Source: a virus. From it: 53,473 bases of DNA. Shown piece after piece: positions 5,301 through 35,893 of this stretch. Each line of letters begins with the position of its first letter. Position 1 is the stretch's first letter. A model generated the notes under the pieces. The model saw only the letters and a list, made by a program, of their open reading frames with translations. It had not been told where the DNA came from and did not search any database. Location of the stretch: IMG/VR virus record IMGVR_UViG_3300012176_000002, positions 1 through 53,473 of that record. One strand, 5' to 3'. The position numbers and the translations under genes were made by a program.

Positions 5301-6196
5301 ACCTCTTCTTTCTCAATTATTACATCTTCGTATATTTTATATGGGATATTATTATTTTTACAAAAAGCTATCTCTCCCAAAACCCCTGTGGAATCGTCGT
5401 AATCGTCGAATACCCACATTTCATGTGAAAGTCTCAGTAACGCAAGGCACATGTCCAATCCTTCTTTATATGACACGTCCGCATATAGAAAACCAAATGC
5501 GTGAATTGGGGACAGAAAAATATAATCTGGATACTTTTTAACTAAATATTTAATTATGTCTCTTACTCTATATTTGTTTTCTGGATTGTTTTGATATTTA
5601 TGAGATATATAGATAAGCTTTTTCTGCTTTGGAGTTGATAGAAATTCCTCATATTTTGAAATTACTTCATTCGCAATTTGATATGGGCTTCTACTGCCTT
5701 CATTAATGATAATCATTCTTGATAGTTCTTCCGCACCTATAAAGTCGATATCATCTGCTTTTAATCTTCGTTCCACTTCTTCATTGTTATCCCCTCTTCC
5801 ACTTTCACCGCACAACCGCTTCATAATTACGGTTTTGCTTGCTTTGATAAAGACAGGGAAAATATCATAGTGCTGAGTCTTATTTGCTTGACTGAGAAGT
5901 TGTGTTATTCCATTAGGGGTAAGAATTATAATGCTGTCTCTGCTATAATCCTCCCATGCGCTTCCATAGTGCCACTTTCCATAAACAGTGCTGTATGTAT
6001 TCGTTTCACCAAAAAATCCATTTTCTTTTTTCTTTAAGAACTCTTCATTATCGATAAAATGATAATCAACACCATTTATTTCACCTTCTCTTGGCGGCCT
6101 AGTCGTGTATGTCACGATCCGTCTATAACCTCTTCCCTCAATCGACTTAGCCACACAGGTCTTACCAGAACCCGTTCCACCATATAAGATAATCAT
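5291..6196 (-). CDS. gmk: Guanylate kinase-like domain fused to a DUF4406/NDT-like domain
   Basis: GGTGSGKT P-loop and YTTRPPREGEINGVDYHF signature; C-terminal IYISH...SPIH...STGVLGEI. Confidence 0.85.
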   Translation of the reverse strand: MIILYGGTGSGKTCVAKSIEGRGYRRIVTYTTRPPREGEINGVDYHFIDNEEFLKKKENGFFGETNTYSTVYGKWHYGSAWEDYSRDSIIILTPNGITQLLSQANKTQHYDIFPVFIKASKTVIMKRLCGESGRGDNNEEVERRLKADDIDFIGAEELSRMIIINEGSRSPYQIANEVISKYEEFLSTPKQKKLIYISHKYQNNPENKYRVRDIIKYLVKKYPDYIFLSPIHAFGFLYADVSYKEGLDMCLALLRLSHEMWVFDDYDDSTGVLGEIAFCKNNNIPYKIYEDVIIEKEEVCL

Positions 6197-29472: not shown

Positions 29473-29690
29473 CCTGTTTCTCCTTTCCCAGTCAAGCCGC
29501 CGATGAGTAAAAACGCCAACCATATACAGGTAGCAATGCTCCAGTTGAAACTGATTCCTAAAATTATTGTTACTACTTTTACGAGTCCGCAGAAAATTAT
29601 CCAATTTAAAGACACGGTTAGACATAGCATTAATATGAAAAATAATAACTTAACTACGAAAACAGCAATTTTTTCTAGTTTTTTATTCAA
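29466..29690 (-). CDS. Small membrane protein
   Basis: Two hydrophobic segments. Confidence 0.6.
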   Translation of the reverse strand: MNKKLEKIAVFVVKLLFFILMLCLTVSLNWIIFCGLVKVVTIILGISFNWSIATCIWLAFLLIGGLTGKGETGW

Positions 29691-30144
29691 TCTTCCCCAG
29701 CCTCCCACATTCCTCTACCCTGTGAAATTTGTTTGCAAAAGGTAGTATGGCATTGCGTACTGCAATAAACTCTGGGTCATCGCATTGCATGGAACATAAG
29801 TGATATGCAATCTGTCTAGCAATGCGTACATCAATTTTTATATGTAAACCCCCACACCATAACGGAAGACAGGAAAAATCAATGTCCGCGCCACCAAGAT
29901 CTGCATCCCGAAGATCTGCTCTCCATAGTTCTGCTTCCCGAAGGTCAGCAGTTCGAAGGTCAGCACCCCGAAGGTCGGCATTATGAAGGTCGGAAACCCG
30001 AAGGTCGATATTATGAAGGTCAGCGCCCCGAAGGTCAATATTGTGAAGGTCAGCATATTGCAAGTCATATTCCCTTAGTTTAGTTATATTTTCACCTTCT
30101 ATGAGTTTAAAAACCTTATTTCTATCAAATGGTTTTAATTCCAT
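29683..30144 (-). CDS. Pentapeptide repeat protein
   Basis: A(D/N)LxG-type repeats with 15-bp DNA periodicity; C-terminal PLWCG. Confidence 0.9.
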   Translation of the reverse strand: MELKPFDRNKVFKLIEGENITKLREYDLQYADLHNIDLRGADLHNIDLRVSDLHNADLRGADLRTADLREAELWRADLRDADLGGADIDFSCLPLWCGGLHIKIDVRIARQIAYHLCSMQCDDPEFIAVRNAILPFANKFHRVEECGRLGKIE

Positions 30145-31031
30145 TTTTCCTCCTTTCTTACTATACTGAACATATCGTCGATGTTTTTTAACAAACCATA
30201 TCTATTAGTAGAGACGGAGCTTTTTGCAAATTTCTGTTCAACCAAATCAATGTGGAATGTCATTGTGCCATCATCCCCCATATAAAATTGATCCCACTCC
30301 TCCTGTGTCATTAATCGTCTTACATCTAATTGTTCAATGGAGAGATTGTCAAATGACACCACATTAAAGGCGCTAATAATGTTTTGAATATTATCGTAGA
30401 GCCACTTCTGATTTTCTGATATGTCTTCATGCCATTCTTTAAGCCATTCGGTTCCACGGCGTAAATCCTTATAGCCCAATATCAACATTTTTAAGTTTTT
30501 ATTTTGAAGGATTTCAAGATTGTTAGCGTTAAAGATCCCATTTATAACATGCAATACTGCATTAGGAAACTCTTGCAGAGATTCAACTAGAATTTCAGAA
30601 GGTTTATTTAAAGATACCCCTAGCCCGTAGATGAGTTTTTTATTAGTGAGTTCATGTAATAGGTCTTTGTTTTGTTCAAAATGTTGCTGATTTACTGTTA
30701 TATTGGATATAACCTTCTTATGTTTTAGTTTGGTAAGGAATTTAATAAGATCTGGATGAGAAAGCGGATTCCCTCCACCTATGGCAATTTCGGTAAATGG
30801 ATGTAGTGTATCAAGAAATTCTTGATTTAATATATCTCCGTACACGCCATCCTTCGTAGAACCTTCATGACAATACGGGCAATTCATGTCGCATTGATTG
30901 GTAATTTTACAATCACAATTTTCTGAAAAGGATGGAATAAATTCATTTTCTCTTGTTTCTCTTATCTTAGATCCGTCTGACAGAATAGTCGTTGTATAAT
31001 TACCATTTTTATAGATCCCAAGAATTTTCAT
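30135..31031 (-). CDS. Radical SAM protein
   Basis: CDMNCPYC (CxxxCxxC), IGGGNPL, NITVN. Confidence 0.9.
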   Translation of the reverse strand: MKILGIYKNGNYTTTILSDGSKIRETRENEFIPSFSENCDCKITNQCDMNCPYCHEGSTKDGVYGDILNQEFLDTLHPFTEIAIGGGNPLSHPDLIKFLTKLKHKKVISNITVNQQHFEQNKDLLHELTNKKLIYGLGVSLNKPSEILVESLQEFPNAVLHVINGIFNANNLEILQNKNLKMLILGYKDLRRGTEWLKEWHEDISENQKWLYDNIQNIISAFNVVSFDNLSIEQLDVRRLMTQEEWDQFYMGDDGTMTFHIDLVEQKFAKSSVSTNRYGLLKNIDDMFSIVRKEEKWN

Positions 31032-31033
31032 AC

Positions 31034-31417
31034 TCAACATCCATACCCAAATTCCCCAAATGCTACAACTTTTTCCCCTGATGGTGTAGTAAAATACTCA
31101 TCAAAATATTCCAAATCTGATCCGACATCTTCAAATCTCTTGAATCCATACCCTCTTAACTCTTTATAAAGTTTTTCGTCATCTACGCTGTTTAATCTAT
31201 CTAAATTAACATATTGTGAATGTTTACAACATTCAATAGCCTCTTTTTTGGTACAAAATTGACCTTGTGGGATATAATCCTCATCAACATCCCAAACTTC
31301 ATCCATTAGTAATACTTCACCAGAAACCCACCTATCAAAGTCTGACTTCATACACATGGTTAAAGAATGTGTACTACTACTATTAGTTTCAAATACGCCT
31401 CTACGAATTGTCCTCAT
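31034..31417 (-). CDS. 'FETNSSS' family hypothetical protein
   Basis: N-terminal IRRGVFETNSSSTHS. Confidence 0.8.
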   Translation of the reverse strand: MRTIRRGVFETNSSSTHSLTMCMKSDFDRWVSGEVLLMDEVWDVDEDYIPQGQFCTKKEAIECCKHSQYVNLDRLNSVDDEKLYKELRGYGFKRFEDVGSDLEYFDEYFTTPSGEKVVAFGEFGYGC

Positions 31418-31428
31418 TCGTCTTCCTC

Positions 31429-31968
31429 CTAATAATTATAATTTGGTAATTCCACTTCAATTTCGTCCGGATTAATAACCCCCGTTCTTTTCAGCCTATT
31501 CCACACGCTATACTCATCCCCATCTACAATGATAATGTATCTCTTATTAAGAAGAAATTCTTTGAAAGATATATTATTCTCCTCAAGATATCCGCTTAAA
31601 ATCCCATCAGATTCATGATCAATTGATCCGTGGTATTCTTCCTCGTCCCAATTGGTGGGGAATTCAATGCCACTACAGTTATTTAAAATCTCTTTTAATA
31701 CATCAATGATTTCTTCAGTTTTATCGTTATCATTAGAATAAGCCGCTAATAGGTATCGTAGCTTTTCATATGGAGATGATAAAACATTAAATGGGAAACG
31801 TCCAAATTCCAAGTCCTCTTCTCTCAAAAAACTTATCTTCCCATCATCATCCAGCCAAAAACACCTCTCTATTTCTTCCACATTAAAATATTCTGATTTC
31901 TTTTTTATAACAAGAGAATGAGAACTACTTGAATTTATTTCAAAAACTCCACGCCTGATAACTTTCAT
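31429..31968 (-). CDS. 'FE(I)NSSS' family hypothetical protein (N-terminal paralog of 31034..31417)
   Basis: MKVIRRGVFEINSSSSHS; GSIDH; RBS GGAGG before 31968. Confidence 0.8.
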   Translation of the reverse strand: MKVIRRGVFEINSSSSHSLVIKKKSEYFNVEEIERCFWLDDDGKISFLREEDLEFGRFPFNVLSSPYEKLRYLLAAYSNDNDKTEEIIDVLKEILNNCSGIEFPTNWDEEEYHGSIDHESDGILSGYLEENNISFKEFLLNKRYIIIVDGDEYSVWNRLKRTGVINPDEIEVELPNYNY

Positions 31969-32005
31969 CGGTTCCTCCCTTTTAAATTTAAATGAATTGT
32001 CCAAT

Positions 32006-33211
32006 TTATACACTTTTCACCGTCTGTCTTGTCATTCCGTTGCTCTTATAAATCTTTTCAATACAACCAAGACTTGATGACAATTCTTCTACGGGCAATC
32101 CATTTTTCGAGCCATCCATAATAGTATTATCGGTTTCATCTAAATGAGTAACCGCAAGACTATATTTAACTTTCCTACCTTTTATCTTATCAATATCTTT
32201 TTTGACTGTCTTGACAAATAACTCTTTATCAAAGTAGCCGTATCTAAAATCGCCTTGAAACTCGTTATAGTGATTTGTTAAATCCACAAGATTTTCACCT
32301 ATATCTACCTTTTGGCATTCCGTTGGGAAAGCGCCTGCCCCATGTCGCGTCATATAAGAACGTGTAATGTAGCAAATTTCAACATCATTGAACTTATCCC
32401 AATCAGCTCCTAAGTAATAAAGGGCAGTAAGTACATTGTCTATTCCTGTGTTCGATGGTGTTAAGTTAGGGAAGAACGCCTTATTGTTTTTATCCAATAA
32501 CAAACCCTGAGACCCTTCAAACACTAATGTATTGAATTTGTCTAAAATTTCATCCCCAACAATTTCACAGTAGTTCAGCATTTCGTTGAATTGCCTAATA
32601 TAATTTCTTTGAATCGTTTTGTTATTAAGTAATTCCATGTCTTGCAAAGAGATATTTTTTACGCCCAACTCTTTTAATCTATCTACCGAATACTCTGCCC
32701 TCACTGTATCCATGAAGTCATCCATATATGAATTTATATGAGCATTCGAAACTGTGTTGTCAATATTTAGAGTTTTGTTTCTTACAAGTGTTTCATTAAT
32801 TCCCAGACCACAACTGCCGTGTCTGTTATCGCCCCTATATCTTTCAATCATTTGATTAACCATCATATCAAAGGGCAATGTAATCTTGCATTGTGGATGT
32901 AAGTAAACTTTTGGCTTAATACCAAGCTTAACTAATTTATTATATTCCTTCCAAAAGATGATTGGATTTACTATGAAATCCTTATTAAGATAAGTGGCAA
33001 CATTATTATTTAGAATACCTGCACCAAAATGACTAAATACATGCCTTACTCCATCTGGAGTAACCACAGTATGCCCTGCCTGTGAGCCGCCACAAAATCT
33101 TATGTTGAGAGCATCTTCTATAAAGGACTTTTGATTACAGAAATAATCCGTCATCAGTCCCTTGCCCTCGTCCCCGAAATTAGTTCCAATTAATATTTTT
33201 ATCTTTTTCAT
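32006..33211 (-). CDS. Divergent adenylosuccinate synthetase (PurA)-like ligase
   Basis: GDEGKG, GGSQAGHT, EGSQG and YMTRHGAGAFPTE motifs; Asp-binding loop replaced. Confidence 0.85.
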   Translation of the reverse strand: MKKIKILIGTNFGDEGKGLMTDYFCNQKSFIEDALNIRFCGGSQAGHTVVTPDGVRHVFSHFGAGILNNNVATYLNKDFIVNPIIFWKEYNKLVKLGIKPKVYLHPQCKITLPFDMMVNQMIERYRGDNRHGSCGLGINETLVRNKTLNIDNTVSNAHINSYMDDFMDTVRAEYSVDRLKELGVKNISLQDMELLNNKTIQRNYIRQFNEMLNYCEIVGDEILDKFNTLVFEGSQGLLLDKNNKAFFPNLTPSNTGIDNVLTALYYLGADWDKFNDVEICYITRSYMTRHGAGAFPTECQKVDIGENLVDLTNHYNEFQGDFRYGYFDKELFVKTVKKDIDKIKGRKVKYSLAVTHLDETDNTIMDGSKNGLPVEELSSSLGCIEKIYKSNGMTRQTVKSV

Positions 33212-33234
33212 AATGTTGCCACCTCCCTTCTTAT

Positions 33235-34137
33235 TTACATTTCAACCAAGTCGTTACTTTGGCTTAATGTTAATAAATCCTTAATTGCTTCTTTTACTAC
33301 CAGTGCAGTATTACCGTCCCAGCTTCCAACTACCTCATCAACAGGCTTGCCGCCCATTGTTTCAAGAATGGATACGATTATCTCTGGAATTTTAGTATAG
33401 TCTGATACCTTAATGGCTCTCTCCCCAAGTAACTCTACCCATGCCGGTTTATTCATAGAATGTGCGCTACCGCCTTGCTCTAACAATAAGTGGAATACCT
33501 CGTATTGCCGATTTACTTGAGCCAGCACTTCTTTGACTGGAATATCAGCTTCTACAACATCACCAAAGAACTCTTCAATTTCCCTTTTAGTAATAACTTT
33601 GGGATAACAGTCATCACCCATAGTAAAAATAAATCCCTTTTTGTTTCTCTTTTCATAACAATCAATCTTTGTATGATTGGCGGCAAAGTACCATACTAGC
33701 GGATAACTTTCAAAATTATTCCCGCCGCCGCCTTGTTCAAACCATAAGTCGGTAAGCTGTTCGGCAATACGGATATCCGATTCAAACTGGGTTGATTGCA
33801 ATGGGGCATCATCACACATTGCATCCCCGACAGCATTAAACATGATCTGTGGGTCTGCCACCGGCTGACGGTCATATATATTACCTACCAATGTACCTAG
33901 CTTTTCAGCAACGGCTTCTAAAATCCTCGACATCGAGCCAGTTACGTCTAACCCAATAATGATTGCATTACTGTTGGGATGTTCGTCACTATCACAGCTT
34001 TCTCTGATATCTACGTTTTTGGGATCATATTCTGGCTTGATGCTTCGTGACTTATAAATTGATGTAGCTGATTTACCTTTGATGTGCGTTGTAGAATAAC
34101 TTGACCAATCGCTTGCTGTCCAACTTCCTCCACCCAT
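33235..34137 (-). CDS. vWA domain protein with MGGGSW N-terminus
   Basis: MIDAS-like LDVTGSM, GGGNNFESY, TMGD. Confidence 0.85.
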   Translation of the reverse strand: MGGGSWTASDWSSYSTTHIKGKSATSIYKSRSIKPEYDPKNVDIRESCDSDEHPNSNAIIIGLDVTGSMSRILEAVAEKLGTLVGNIYDRQPVADPQIMFNAVGDAMCDDAPLQSTQFESDIRIAEQLTDLWFEQGGGGNNFESYPLVWYFAANHTKIDCYEKRNKKGFIFTMGDDCYPKVITKREIEEFFGDVVEADIPVKEVLAQVNRQYEVFHLLLEQGGSAHSMNKPAWVELLGERAIKVSDYTKIPEIIVSILETMGGKPVDEVVGSWDGNTALVVKEAIKDLLTLSQSNDLVEM

Positions 34138-34139
34138 AA

Positions 34140-34250
34140 TTACTTATCCTCCTTTTCGTCTTTACCCTTTACTTCTGTTTCAGTGGCAGTTGTCTCCACT
34201 GTTTTCTCTTCCATCATTTCTTCCCATGTTCTTTCTGTCGTCATTCCCAT
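34140..34250 (-). CDS. 36-aa Thr/Glu-rich peptide (not in ORF track)
   Basis: MGMTTERTWEEMMEEKTVETTATETEVKGKDEKEDK; fills the gap between genes and stops 2 nt before the vWA start. Confidence 0.5.
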   Translation of the reverse strand: MGMTTERTWEEMMEEKTVETTATETEVKGKDEKEDK

Positions 34251-34273
34251 TTTTAATAATCTCTTTTTTAATA

Positions 34274-35296
34274 TTATATTTTGTAAATATCGTTTTTATT
34301 GATATTCAGTTTTATAAACTTGCGTTTGCCAAATGCTTCTGTTAATGAATCATTCCATTTTCTAAATTCATCAACTGCCTTTTCTGACGATCCACTTCTT
34401 AAAAATCTTGCAATTGCTTTTGGATATGATGCTGCCTCTTTCTTAGAGGATGTTAAAGATAGGTTTCCAAGTATCTGTCTTCCTATTAATTTACTACTTT
34501 CTAAATCAGTGATAATTGTTGCAATTTTCATCCCTTTTTCTTTAATTGGAATAATATCGTATATTGCTTTTTGAGTCCCAATCATTTTTTCTCCTTGATT
34601 GATACAGTACCACCACCCTCCTAATAAAATGATAGTATGATATTCTGGAGATACAAAACAATTACTAAGACTTATACCGTTATGAGCTACTTTTATATAA
34701 TCTAAGTAGCAACATATATTATTGAGCCTACTTATAATCCATGCAGAGTGTTCTGGAGGTATCTTACCATTGAAGTGATTTAGCAAATCATCCAGTAAAA
34801 ACATGTCAGCCGTTTTATAAAAAGCAATACACCATCTCCCATCTTTTAATTTATAGTTATACATGATTTTCGGCATAAAACGGGATACTTCTTTCTTCAT
34901 ACCATCGTTTGCGTATTTTAGACTTTGAATCTTTCGAATAGCATTTTGATAGTATTTTTCATGCTTCGCTTCTAAAATATAAATCACTTCATCGTCACAT
35001 ATGTAGAACACCCCCAATTCAAAATTATTTTCTGATAGAAATTTATGATTTGATTTTTTACCAGAAAACTCCACAAGGATTACTTGGTTACTAACCTCCC
35101 ACTCTCCAATCTCAATAAGGTACATTGCTTTTTCATATAATGAATTTATTTTAGCCATTATGCCATTATCATTCTTGTAAATGTCTGGATGATACTTTCG
35201 TGATAGTTCTCTATATTCTGCCTTTGCAACGTCTTTATTATTTGAAAAAATATCACCACACTTTTTTGCCGCAAGTATTACTTTTTCCGAAATCAA
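34274..35296 (-). CDS. J-domain protein fused to a kinase-like (pseudokinase) domain
   Basis: YRELSRKYHPD J motif; HNGISLSN and LGGW replace HxDxxxxN and DFG. Confidence 0.75.
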   Translation of the reverse strand: MISEKVILAAKKCGDIFSNNKDVAKAEYRELSRKYHPDIYKNDNGIMAKINSLYEKAMYLIEIGEWEVSNQVILVEFSGKKSNHKFLSENNFELGVFYICDDEVIYILEAKHEKYYQNAIRKIQSLKYANDGMKKEVSRFMPKIMYNYKLKDGRWCIAFYKTADMFLLDDLLNHFNGKIPPEHSAWIISRLNNICCYLDYIKVAHNGISLSNCFVSPEYHTIILLGGWWYCINQGEKMIGTQKAIYDIIPIKEKGMKIATIITDLESSKLIGRQILGNLSLTSSKKEAASYPKAIARFLRSGSSEKAVDEFRKWNDSLTEAFGKRKFIKLNINKNDIYKI

Positions 35297-35326
35297 TTAG
35301 CCCCCTCCTTCCACTAATATATTTGA

Positions 35327-35344
35327 ATGAAACTGGCAATTCAT
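35327..35344. repeat. Junction repeat ATGAAA-CTGGCA-ATTCAT
   Basis: Between the sigma factor gene and the J-domain operon. Confidence 0.65.
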
Positions 35345-35359
35345 AGTCCCCTGGTTACA

Positions 35360-35893
35360 CTATTCCTGACTGAACTCTATGTATTTATTCCGAACCTTTT
35401 TCATAATCTGCTGAACGCGGGATTTAGATAATCCTTCTACTATAGCAACATCACCATTAGAAAACCCATTCATTTTCATCAGTAGCACTTTTACCTCTCT
35501 ATTTCTTAATATGCGTAAAAAATCTAAAATCGAATAGTGGGAAATGACATTTTTTTCAAAATAATTTTCATCAGGGATTAAATCAATTAGTGGAACCTTC
35601 CTGCCCTCTAAAAACCGCTCTGTAGATAATGATAAAACAGCACTATTCATTTTCCTTTTAAGACTTTTCTCTTTCCTTATTTCATCAACAATAGAGTCAT
35701 GAATATATTTGCAGGCGCGTTCCTCAAATCCTCCCAACTCTTCGTTATAATTCATTGCAGCCTTGCACAATCCTTCCGCTGCCGCACCATAATAATCATC
35801 ATGGTTTCGGTATGGAATTTTCATATGCTTAAGAGACCTTGCAATGAGATAGTGGGAATCTTCCACCAGTTTGCTTTGATTATCAGTTAAAAT
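35360..35893 (-). CDS. Phage sigma70-family RNA polymerase sigma factor, probable ATT start
   Basis: Region 2 (AAEGLCKAAMNY...F...A...I) and region 4 HTH (GFSNGDVA...SKSRVQQI); ATT at 35893 is 8 nt after GGAGG. Confidence 0.85.
   Translation of the reverse strand: MLTDNQSKLVEDSHYLIARSLKHMKIPYRNHDDYYGAAAEGLCKAAMNYNEELGGFEERACKYIHDSIVDEIRKEKSLKRKMNSAVLSLSTERFLEGRKVPLIDLIPDENYFEKNVISHYSILDFLRILRNREVKVLLMKMNGFSNGDVAIVEGLSKSRVQQIMKKVRNKYIEFSQE

Follow-up and report, generated by a model that had tools for sequence, protein, structure and literature searches.

The window analysed here is the whole stretch of 53,473 nucleotides at positions 1 to 53,473 of IMG/VR virus record IMGVR_UViG_3300012176_000002, part of a 119.8-kb virus record that is 68% complete. 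Between positions 30135 and 35296 it carries seven tightly packed genes, and these very probably represent one probable transcription unit made up of two functionally separate and independently mobile modules. Module A codes for a J-domain protein fused to a kinase-like domain, a vWA-fold protein and an enzyme with the fold of adenylosuccinate synthetase (PurA), and a 36-amino-acid open reading frame (ORF), perhaps a further member of the module, lies between the first two of these genes. Module B codes for two proteins that begin with a common sequence tag (clients 1 and 2) and for a compact radical SAM protein. The original prediction, made from the DNA alone, described seven packed, co-oriented genes directly downstream of a phage sigma factor gene, and both features are confirmed, with all seven ORFs on the minus strand and the upstream gene assigned to phrog_351. 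It also proposed that all seven genes form a single chaperone-assisted system for ligating a purine nucleotide to an amine other than aspartate, and here our analysis leads elsewhere. Taken as a whole, the explanation that we favour, with its two modules, the roles proposed for them and their union by cassette insertion, appears likely.

Module A is widespread without module B. A scan with the vWA protein as seed, covering one genome for each prokaryote species, gave at least 587 matches; of the best 80 bacterial loci, 73 contain the J-pseudokinase gene and 79 the PurA-like gene, in an order that never varies, and the tagged proteins and radical SAM gene are found in none. In phages the vWA and PurA-like genes are adjacent in those of Mycobacterium (about 200 records), Rhizobium and Vibrio, and in mycobacteriophage Pleione a J-kinase gene precedes the pair. 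No radical SAM homologue was found anywhere in the records of Pleione, Vibrio phage Va1, Rhizobium phage RHph_Y65 and two IMG/VR relatives, all of which contain module A. Module B likewise occurs mostly by itself: the PurA-like gene is present in 8 of 50 module B records and in 3 of the 21 complete ones, the isolates with the radical SAM gene (Lak phages, Microcystis phages) do not overlap those with the vWA and PurA-like genes, and in two records that hold both modules these are 45–60 kb apart. Co-occurrence in other genomes had been named as a test of the seven-gene system, and it stands in part: the J-pseudokinase, vWA and PurA-like trio recurs across distant genomes, and the tagged proteins and radical SAM gene occur without it.

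A sister contig provides a direct view of the junction between the modules. Metagenome contig Ga0153939_1000246 (L247 in our set of loci) is 95–98% identical to the window at positions 35610–32022, from the sigma factor gene to the PurA-like gene, and at 29705–26359, where the replication genes lie; its sigma factor is 97.6% conserved. Between these two blocks the window has 2316 bp containing both tagged genes, the radical SAM gene and a gene for a pentapeptide-repeat protein, whereas the corresponding slot of the sister contig (L247:3489-6148) is 2660 bp long and contains ORFs of 683 and 131 amino acids without Pfam matches. The break point falls in the last codons of the PurA-like gene, and the slot that follows this gene is demonstrably variable. 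A 16-mer, ATTGGACAATTCATTT, is located just inside the left edge of the cassette in the window and, in the sister contig, just before the right junction, where homology resumes; it is not repeated within the window and is missing from the other 248 loci. Its location at opposite cassette edges suggests that a single short ancestral spacer received a different insertion in each of the two phages. The next closest relative (L004/L248, 72% identity) also lacks module B. With module B in 0 of 80 bacterial loci and the cassette exchanged in a close relative, the proposal of a single seven-gene ligation system is not sustained.

The organization of the window is nonetheless compact. Nine co-oriented minus-strand genes occupy positions 29683–35866, from the sigma factor gene through the pentapeptide-repeat gene (Table 1), and the intergenic spacings from the J-domain gene to the radical SAM gene are 23, 2, 23, 37, 11 and -7 nucleotides. 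A consensus scan of the minus strand across 30135–35296 found no terminator-like sites. Co-transcription of the seven genes is likely, and the sigma factor gene is probably in the same transcription unit as module A. The start codon of tagged protein 1 is the ATG at 31968 and not the GTG at 32013, because a GGGAGGA ribosome-binding site precedes the former and both the database and the Atlas hold the 179-amino-acid form. The pentapeptide-repeat gene overlaps the radical SAM stop codon by 10 nucleotides; a tblastn search gave no match to its product in any other locus, such that it accompanies module B in the window phage only.

Table 1. Positions of the genes and other features of the locus in the window.
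Feature	Position	Strand	Basis or remark
Sigma factor (phage)	35360..35866	-	phrog_351 E 2.3e-13, weak Sigma70_r4_2; directly upstream of module A, listed as context only
Module A gene 1, J-domain/kinase-like protein	34274..35296	-	Family profile against solved J-domains; phrog_3043
36-amino-acid acidic ORF (MGMTTERTW...), uncertain gene	34140..34250	-	ORF intact in sister contig L247
Module A gene 2, vWA-fold protein with MIDAS	33235..34137	-	AlphaFold2 model and Foldseek
Module A gene 3, adenylosuccinate-synthetase-fold (PurA-like) enzyme	32006..33211	-	PF00709 E 4.4e-42
Module B client 1, tagged protein 1, 179 amino acids	31429..31968	-	N-terminal tag MKVIRRGVFEINSSSSHS
Module B client 2, tagged protein 2, 127 amino acids	31034..31417	-	Tag MRTIRRGVFETNSSSTHS
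Module B enzyme, compact radical SAM protein	30135..31040	-	PF04055, phrog_16999
Pentapeptide-repeat protein, 153 amino acids	29683..30144	-	PF00805 E 3.9e-17
Exchangeable 2.3-kb cassette (module B and pentapeptide gene)	29706..32021	.	Alignment with L247
16-mer ATTGGACAATTCATTT at cassette left edge	31990..32005	-	Exact copy in L247 at 6110-6125

The PurA-like enzyme is the most informative member of module A. Its PF00709 match covers profile positions 1–313 of 416, with a C-terminal domain that is shortened relative to PurA, and it scores well below the cut-offs of the NCBIfam models for PurA (NF002223, 125.6 bits against 402; TIGR00184, 117.2 against 395.55) and for PurZ (NF038379, 38.2 bits against 300). 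We mapped the active site by aligning 78 members of the PurA-like family to Escherichia coli PurA, with residue roles as in the E. coli enzyme. The role of R303 in PurA is stated in PMC8342488. The motifs GDEGKG, AGHT and EG(S/A)QG are kept throughout the 78 relatives, with D13, K16, H41 and Q224 conserved in 78/78, and Thr239 and Arg272 are also retained in all or nearly all of them. The substrate loops are different, with GSCGLGINE in place of GTTGRGIGP, the loop for inosine monophosphate (IMP), and NEFQGDFRY in place of the TTGRRRR aspartate loop, and residues T300, T301, R303, R305 and R131 of the aspartate site are replaced or deleted in all 78 members. In the window protein the residues at Thr300, Thr301, Arg303, Arg305 and Arg131 are F, Q, a deletion, F and L, respectively; across the family Thr300 becomes Tyr, Phe or Trp, Thr301 becomes Gln, Arg303 is deleted, and Arg131 and Arg305 become hydrophobic. 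There are further family-wide replacements of Asn38 (by Gln), Thr128/129 (Ser/Cys), Pro135 (Glu), Val273 (His) and Lys331 (His or Cys), and two ligands of the IMP 5'-phosphate are altered in the window protein, to Gln38 and Cys129. Judged from the alignment, the PurA-fold enzyme keeps the phosphotransfer core (a guanosine triphosphate-type P-loop, Asp13, His41 and Gln224), and the three aspartate-binding arginines have been lost family-wide.

These features agree with the original prediction, which noted the retained GDEGKG, AGHT and EGxQG motifs, the exchange of the aspartate-binding and IMP loops and the difference from PurZ, and they extend it to the entire family. PurZ has a Ser in place of PurA Asp13 and keeps the tip of the aspartate loop (PMC8342488); because it departs from PurA in these other ways, and the window protein has Asp13 and a replaced loop, the enzyme is classed neither as PurA nor as PurZ. 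PHROG and GenBank label its relatives as (2-aminooxy) adenylosuccinate synthetase. As a separate observation, the PurA-like gene of Paenibacillus sp. J5C2022 (L141:6980-9289) contains an intein (Intein_splicing E 4.5e-7, at about residues 72–387), and the PF00709 match resumes at 387.

The vWA protein has no Pfam or PDB sequence match, and its fold was established by modelling because the family profile also matched no PDB sequence. An AlphaFold2 model built on 28 homologues (pLDDT 90, pTM 0.90) matches integrin beta-I, vWFA and NorD domains in Foldseek with probability 1.00, with 187 matches at E <= 1e-3, and the MIDAS residues D64, T66 and S68 are invariant in the 28 sequences, such that the predicted vWA assignment is upheld by the modelled fold. 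The two ends of the protein are conserved. The N-terminus conforms to MG.[GAS].[WFL] in 72 of 74 bacterial homologues and to MG followed by x-G-x-W/F in all nine phage homologues, and in the model it is packed onto the domain (pLDDT 77–93) with no free tail. At the other end is a disordered, hydrophobic C-terminal tail; the last residue is Phe in 63/74 bacterial homologues and is hydrophobic family-wide. Among longer proteins, the search for vWA fusions gave one protein of 619 amino acids, the extension of which is unassigned and contains nothing PurA-like.

The first gene of module A encodes an HPD tripeptide at residues 36–38. The window protein by itself scores 18.2 bits with PF00226, under the cut-off of 27.8, although 18 of 24 family members match this model and a profile of the 24 matches solved PDB J-domains (E 1.5e-6) over helices II and III and the HPD motif between them; of 69 bacterial homologues, 64 have this tripeptide. 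The remainder of the protein is kinase-like (phrog_3043 'kinase', E 2.3e-5), and along its full length the protein is homologous to gp265 of mycobacteriophage Pleione, a protein that passes PF00069. At the HRD position the family consensus reads HNG and at the DFG position GGW, and we therefore regard the domain as a pseudokinase. On these motifs the gene 1 product is a J-domain fused to a predicted catalytically dead kinase-like domain, as had been proposed. The N-terminal part of this gene is the sole stretch of module A that is markedly unlike the sister contig (window 35144-35241; L247:366-371), with about 97 nucleotides unaligned and a protein identity of 88.5%, against 97–99% for its neighbours.

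In Vibrio and Rhizobium phages and in one gut-phage clade the place of the J-pseudokinase is taken by a Met-rich protein with an acidic tail, for which no homologue is present in the window phage genome. The genes for it (L001:4252-4965, L002:3753-4544, L045:12609-13226, L060:2009-2650 and L077:9074-9949) code for a conserved N-terminal domain, a Met/Gly-rich stretch and an acidic end, and the Met/Gly-rich stretch is reminiscent of the GGM tail of GroEL. Two further genes were noted beside it: in Rhizobium phage RHph_Y65 a HIRAN-domain protein (L002:4655-4972, E 2.7e-7) lies between the Met-rich and vWA genes, and a gene for a Thg1-like tRNA-His guanylyltransferase (L060:1163-1999) immediately precedes the Met-rich, vWA and PurA-like genes of a gut phage contig.

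The neighbourhoods of module A outside the window offer a lead to its function. A gene for NrtR (NUDIX and NrtR_WHD domains) is directly upstream, often divergently, in 42 of the 80 bacterial loci, and when all flanking ORFs were clustered it was the sole neighbour cluster in more than five of the 80. In Clostridium a single co-directional array contains NrtR, PRPP-synthetase-like, isochorismatase (nicotinamidase-like), Nampt, microbial PARG, J-pseudokinase, vWA and PurA-like genes. In loci of Ruminococcus, Lachnospiraceae and Competibacter, the stretch that separates NrtR from the trio contains a TTGACA/TATTAT promoter overlapped by inverted repeats resembling operators. Among phages, a NADAR gene lies two genes upstream of module A in Vibrio phage Va1, and Rhizobium phage RHph_Y65 has PRTase_3 and NUDIX genes near it. 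NrtR is a repressor released by ADP-ribose, and we therefore infer that the trio acts on a compound derived from nicotinamide adenine dinucleotide (NAD) or ADP-ribose. Two other neighbours were recorded in passing. In Desulfitobacterium sp. Sab5 an AbiH abortive-infection gene (L089:8160-9158, E 1.9e-62) directly follows the NrtR, J-pseudokinase, vWA and PurA-like array, and a DUF4291 protein (E 1.5e-72) is encoded between the NrtR and J-pseudokinase genes at L117:4378-4947 and in two related Lachnospiraceae loci.

Module B was recognized from its tag. Both tagged proteins begin M-x-x-IRRGVFE(T/I)NSSS-x-HS, with invariant columns I4, R5, F9, E10, N12, S13–15 and H17, whereas their bodies are unrelated and do not align; they are the only tagged ORFs in the 119.8-kb record. 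In an AlphaFold2 model of client 1 the body has a pLDDT of 84 and residues 1–13 are below 50 and predicted to be disordered. No match to the fold of client 1 was found (best Foldseek E 0.37, best VIA-align Z 2.4), an Atlas search with it returned unnamed viral clusters only, and it has conserved D/H/E-rich motifs of its own, GxIDHxS and VDGDE. The radical SAM enzyme narrowly passes PF04055 (30.1 bits, cut-off 29.5) and matches phrog_16999 with E 1.6e-41. Its CX3CX2C triad (C50, C54 and C57) contains the sole invariant cysteines among 21 relatives, with none outside the triad that could mark a SPASM/twitch auxiliary cluster. NCBIfam matches to peptide-maturase families are limited to the cluster-binding region and fall far under the cut-offs, small-molecule enzymes of the MoaA and viperin types are among its weak family matches, and the profile gave one marginal PDB match (E 0.0065), to the cluster-binding region of a lipid synthase. 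The presence of two FE(T/I)NSSS proteins and a radical SAM enzyme, as first described, is thus secure from the tag alignment and the cysteine triad.

Tag and enzyme are linked in both directions. Among the best 80 of at least 330 confirmed viral stretches from a pattern scan of viral contigs for the tag, 74 have a radical SAM homologue within 7 kb, and in 75 there is a further tagged ORF after the first. When loci were seeded with the radical SAM protein, a tagged ORF was present on the same strand in all 79, and within 3 kb upstream in 76.

The 36-amino-acid ORF is more doubtful. It differs from its counterpart in the sister contig at four nucleotides, all nonsynonymous, and at the same position L004 has a 79-amino-acid ORF with a similar N-terminus. 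The ORF is absent from L005 and from the mycobacteriophage and bacterial loci, and the bacterial intergenic gaps contain no counterpart; it is not conserved outside close relatives, and its status as a gene is uncertain.

The surroundings of the locus are ordinary early or replication genes, with SprT-like and GNAT genes upstream and AAA_24, SSB and DnaB genes downstream. A nucleotide search of the phage collection with the window gave a single weak match. PADLOC gave no meaningful match for any protein, the weak pVip match being over the radical SAM core only.

In the explanation that we favour, the two modules would adjoin in the window because a 2.3-kb cassette of module B and the pentapeptide gene entered the variable slot right after the PurA-like gene. 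The PurA-like enzyme would still transfer phosphate from a nucleoside triphosphate to an oxygen on a nucleotide-like substrate, and an uncharged nucleophile other than aspartate would then displace the phosphate; we give this sequence of phosphorylation and displacement an even chance. The substrate would lie within NAD/ADP-ribose metabolism, the J-domain would recruit host DnaK, the vWA protein would be a partner or scaffold, and through module A the phage would process or rebuild NAD-derived nucleotides during infection. A role in counter-defence or host takeover, raised in the original prediction, is plausible, and the lead to it comes from the NAD/ADP-ribose genes that surround module A in bacteria and in other phages. 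For module B the simplest reading is that the radical SAM enzyme binds the tag of both clients and chemically modifies it, a reading for which the arguments seem to us about evenly poised.

A more specific proposal for module A is a speculation from the residue map and the neighbourhoods, namely that the PurA-like enzyme on its own leads back to NAD+ or to a closely related compound. A nucleoside triphosphate would phosphorylate the anomeric 1''-oxygen of ADP-ribose, the counterpart of the IMP O6, and nicotinamide would bind in the uncharged pocket (aromatic residue 300, Gln 301) and there displace the phosphate; gating or assembly of the enzyme would fall to the vWA and J-pseudokinase proteins. 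Such a route would explain the position of NrtR, the association with Nampt, PARG and NADAR genes, and carriage by large phages against NAD-depleting defences, but we consider it improbable.

Several observations weigh against the favoured explanation. The modules are neighbours in other arrangements too: in L077 and L079 module B is directly followed by a variant of module A, in L060 module A is followed 2.3 kb later by module B, and in L045-like contigs module B is followed about 4 kb later by module A. In a quick tree the PurA-like gene of the window groups with that of a Clostridiales bacterium and those of L077 and L060 with Lachnospiraceae, and the juxtapositions may therefore be independent events; their repetition could then point to a link in function and not to an accessory-gene region that both occupy, although we see the prospect of such a link as slim. 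The module B counts are not independent events, because the viral loci are mostly close relatives from a few metagenomes. As for NAD, no NUDIX, NAPRTase or CTP_transf_like (NMNAT-type) match was found in the record of the window phage (119.8 kb, 68% complete) and no NrtR-like box upstream of its trio, and the NAD link is therefore not visible there. Finally, the substrates and products named here are putative, as is each role given to the vWA and J-pseudokinase proteins.

Among the rival explanations, the one closest to the original prediction is that all seven genes form one chaperone-assisted ligation system, the acceptor for a purine nucleotide being made or presented by the FE(T/I)NSSS proteins and the radical SAM enzyme. 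The tight packing, the lack of an internal terminator-like site, the proximity of the modules in at least three other arrangements and a vWA gene within 6 kb in 23 of the 79 radical-SAM-seeded loci would all fit. We nevertheless judge it quite improbable, since module B is missing from 80 of 80 bacterial and five of five phage module A records, 18 of the 21 complete module B phage genomes lack module A, the two are 45–60 kb apart in two records, and the near-isogenic sister contig keeps module A and has other genes in place of module B. Another reading, that the PurA-like enzyme nucleotidylates a protein by attaching a purine nucleotide to the Gly exposed when Met is removed from the vWA protein or from the MG-starting peptide, draws on the conserved MG start of 72/74 bacterial and 9/9 phage vWA homologues, on the adjacency of the enzyme and vWA genes in 79/80 loci, and on the replacement of the aspartate pocket by a less charged, more aromatic one. 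Set against this are the packed N-terminus of the modelled vWA protein, the lack of any vWA/PurA-like fusion among longer proteins, and the peptide itself, which is missing from most relatives and differs from the sister contig by nonsynonymous changes throughout; on balance we find it unlikely to be correct.

The PurA-like gene could also be an ordinary auxiliary adenylosuccinate synthetase, or a PurZ-type enzyme for 2-aminoadenine DNA, as the strong PF00709 match, the retained catalytic Asp, Lys, His and Gln and the PHROG and GenBank labels of relatives would imply. This is hardly credible given scores of 125.6 bits against 402 for PurA and 38 against 300 for PurZ, an aspartate site replaced or deleted in 78/78 members, and a PurZ that keeps the aspartate-loop tip and has Ser for Asp13 (PMC8342488). 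A serious rival concerns module B, where the tag may be a docking or targeting peptide (for enzyme assembly, packaging or export) and the radical SAM enzyme may act on a small molecule. The enzyme lacks the SPASM/twitch cysteines that are usual in peptide-modifying radical SAM enzymes, its weak matches include MoaA and viperin-type proteins, and the GxIDHxS and VDGDE motifs of client 1 could form an active site. Docking accounts less well for a near-invariant, disordered tag at a fixed distance from Met1 on unrelated bodies, which is the pattern of a recognition or modification site, or for the linkage of tag and enzyme in both directions, and we hold it to be possible though doubtful, with tag modification the preferred reading.

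Full-text literature searches found no published description of module A or module B. Module A combines a PurA fold that has a conserved new pocket with a vWA protein and a pseudokinase predicted to recruit DnaK, in hundreds of bacteria and large phages, and its reaction, once known, could prove to be a new step in the NAD or nucleotide metabolism of conflicts between phage and host. Module B pairs a widespread phage radical SAM enzyme with tag-marked clients and is likely to involve new post-translational chemistry. The window phage and Ga0153939_1000246 are natural near-isogenic variants in which the module B cassette differs and module A is the same, and treating the modules separately should avoid experiments built around a nonexistent seven-gene system.

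The components of both modules can be compared with known systems. PurA itself (EC 6.3.4.4; E. coli 1ADE, 1KJX, 1CG0) has the same fold, belongs to the same Pfam family and shares the phosphotransfer residues, whereas the module A enzyme has remodelled aspartate and IMP-phosphate pockets, a shortened C-terminal domain and a vWA gene as neighbour. PurZ and PurZ0 of the 2-aminoadenine phages (S-2L, phiVC8) are likewise phage-borne PurA homologues with changed specificity, but the module A enzyme has Asp13 and is without the aspartate loop. The J-domain contains helix II, HPD and helix III as in DnaJ, CbpA and DjlA, with a pseudokinase fusion instead of their Gly/Phe-rich, zinc-finger and client-binding domains. 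The TerY-P triad, consisting of a TerY-type vWA protein, a Ser/Thr kinase and a PP2C phosphatase, similarly places a vWA protein beside a kinase-fold protein in conflict-type neighbourhoods; in module A the kinase is dead and bears a J-domain, the third partner has the PurA fold, and there is no recurrent phosphatase neighbour.

Phages can reconstitute NAD+ by two pathways, NARP1 (Adps and Namat) and NARP2 (Nampt and Nmnat). For comparison with these pathways and with bacterial NrtR regulons, module A is found beside NrtR genes in bacteria, in one array with Nampt and PARG genes in Clostridium, and near NADAR, Nudix and PRTase genes in other phages. None of its three proteins is homologous to the NARP enzymes, and the record of the window phage yielded no NAD gene. 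For module B the nearest parallels are anSME/AtsB with their sulfatases, SkfB, SuiB and PqqE, in which one radical SAM enzyme is likewise encoded beside proteins that share a short Ser-rich stretch. In contrast to these, module B is without the SPASM/twitch cysteines, and its stretch is at the extreme N-terminus of full-size folded proteins.

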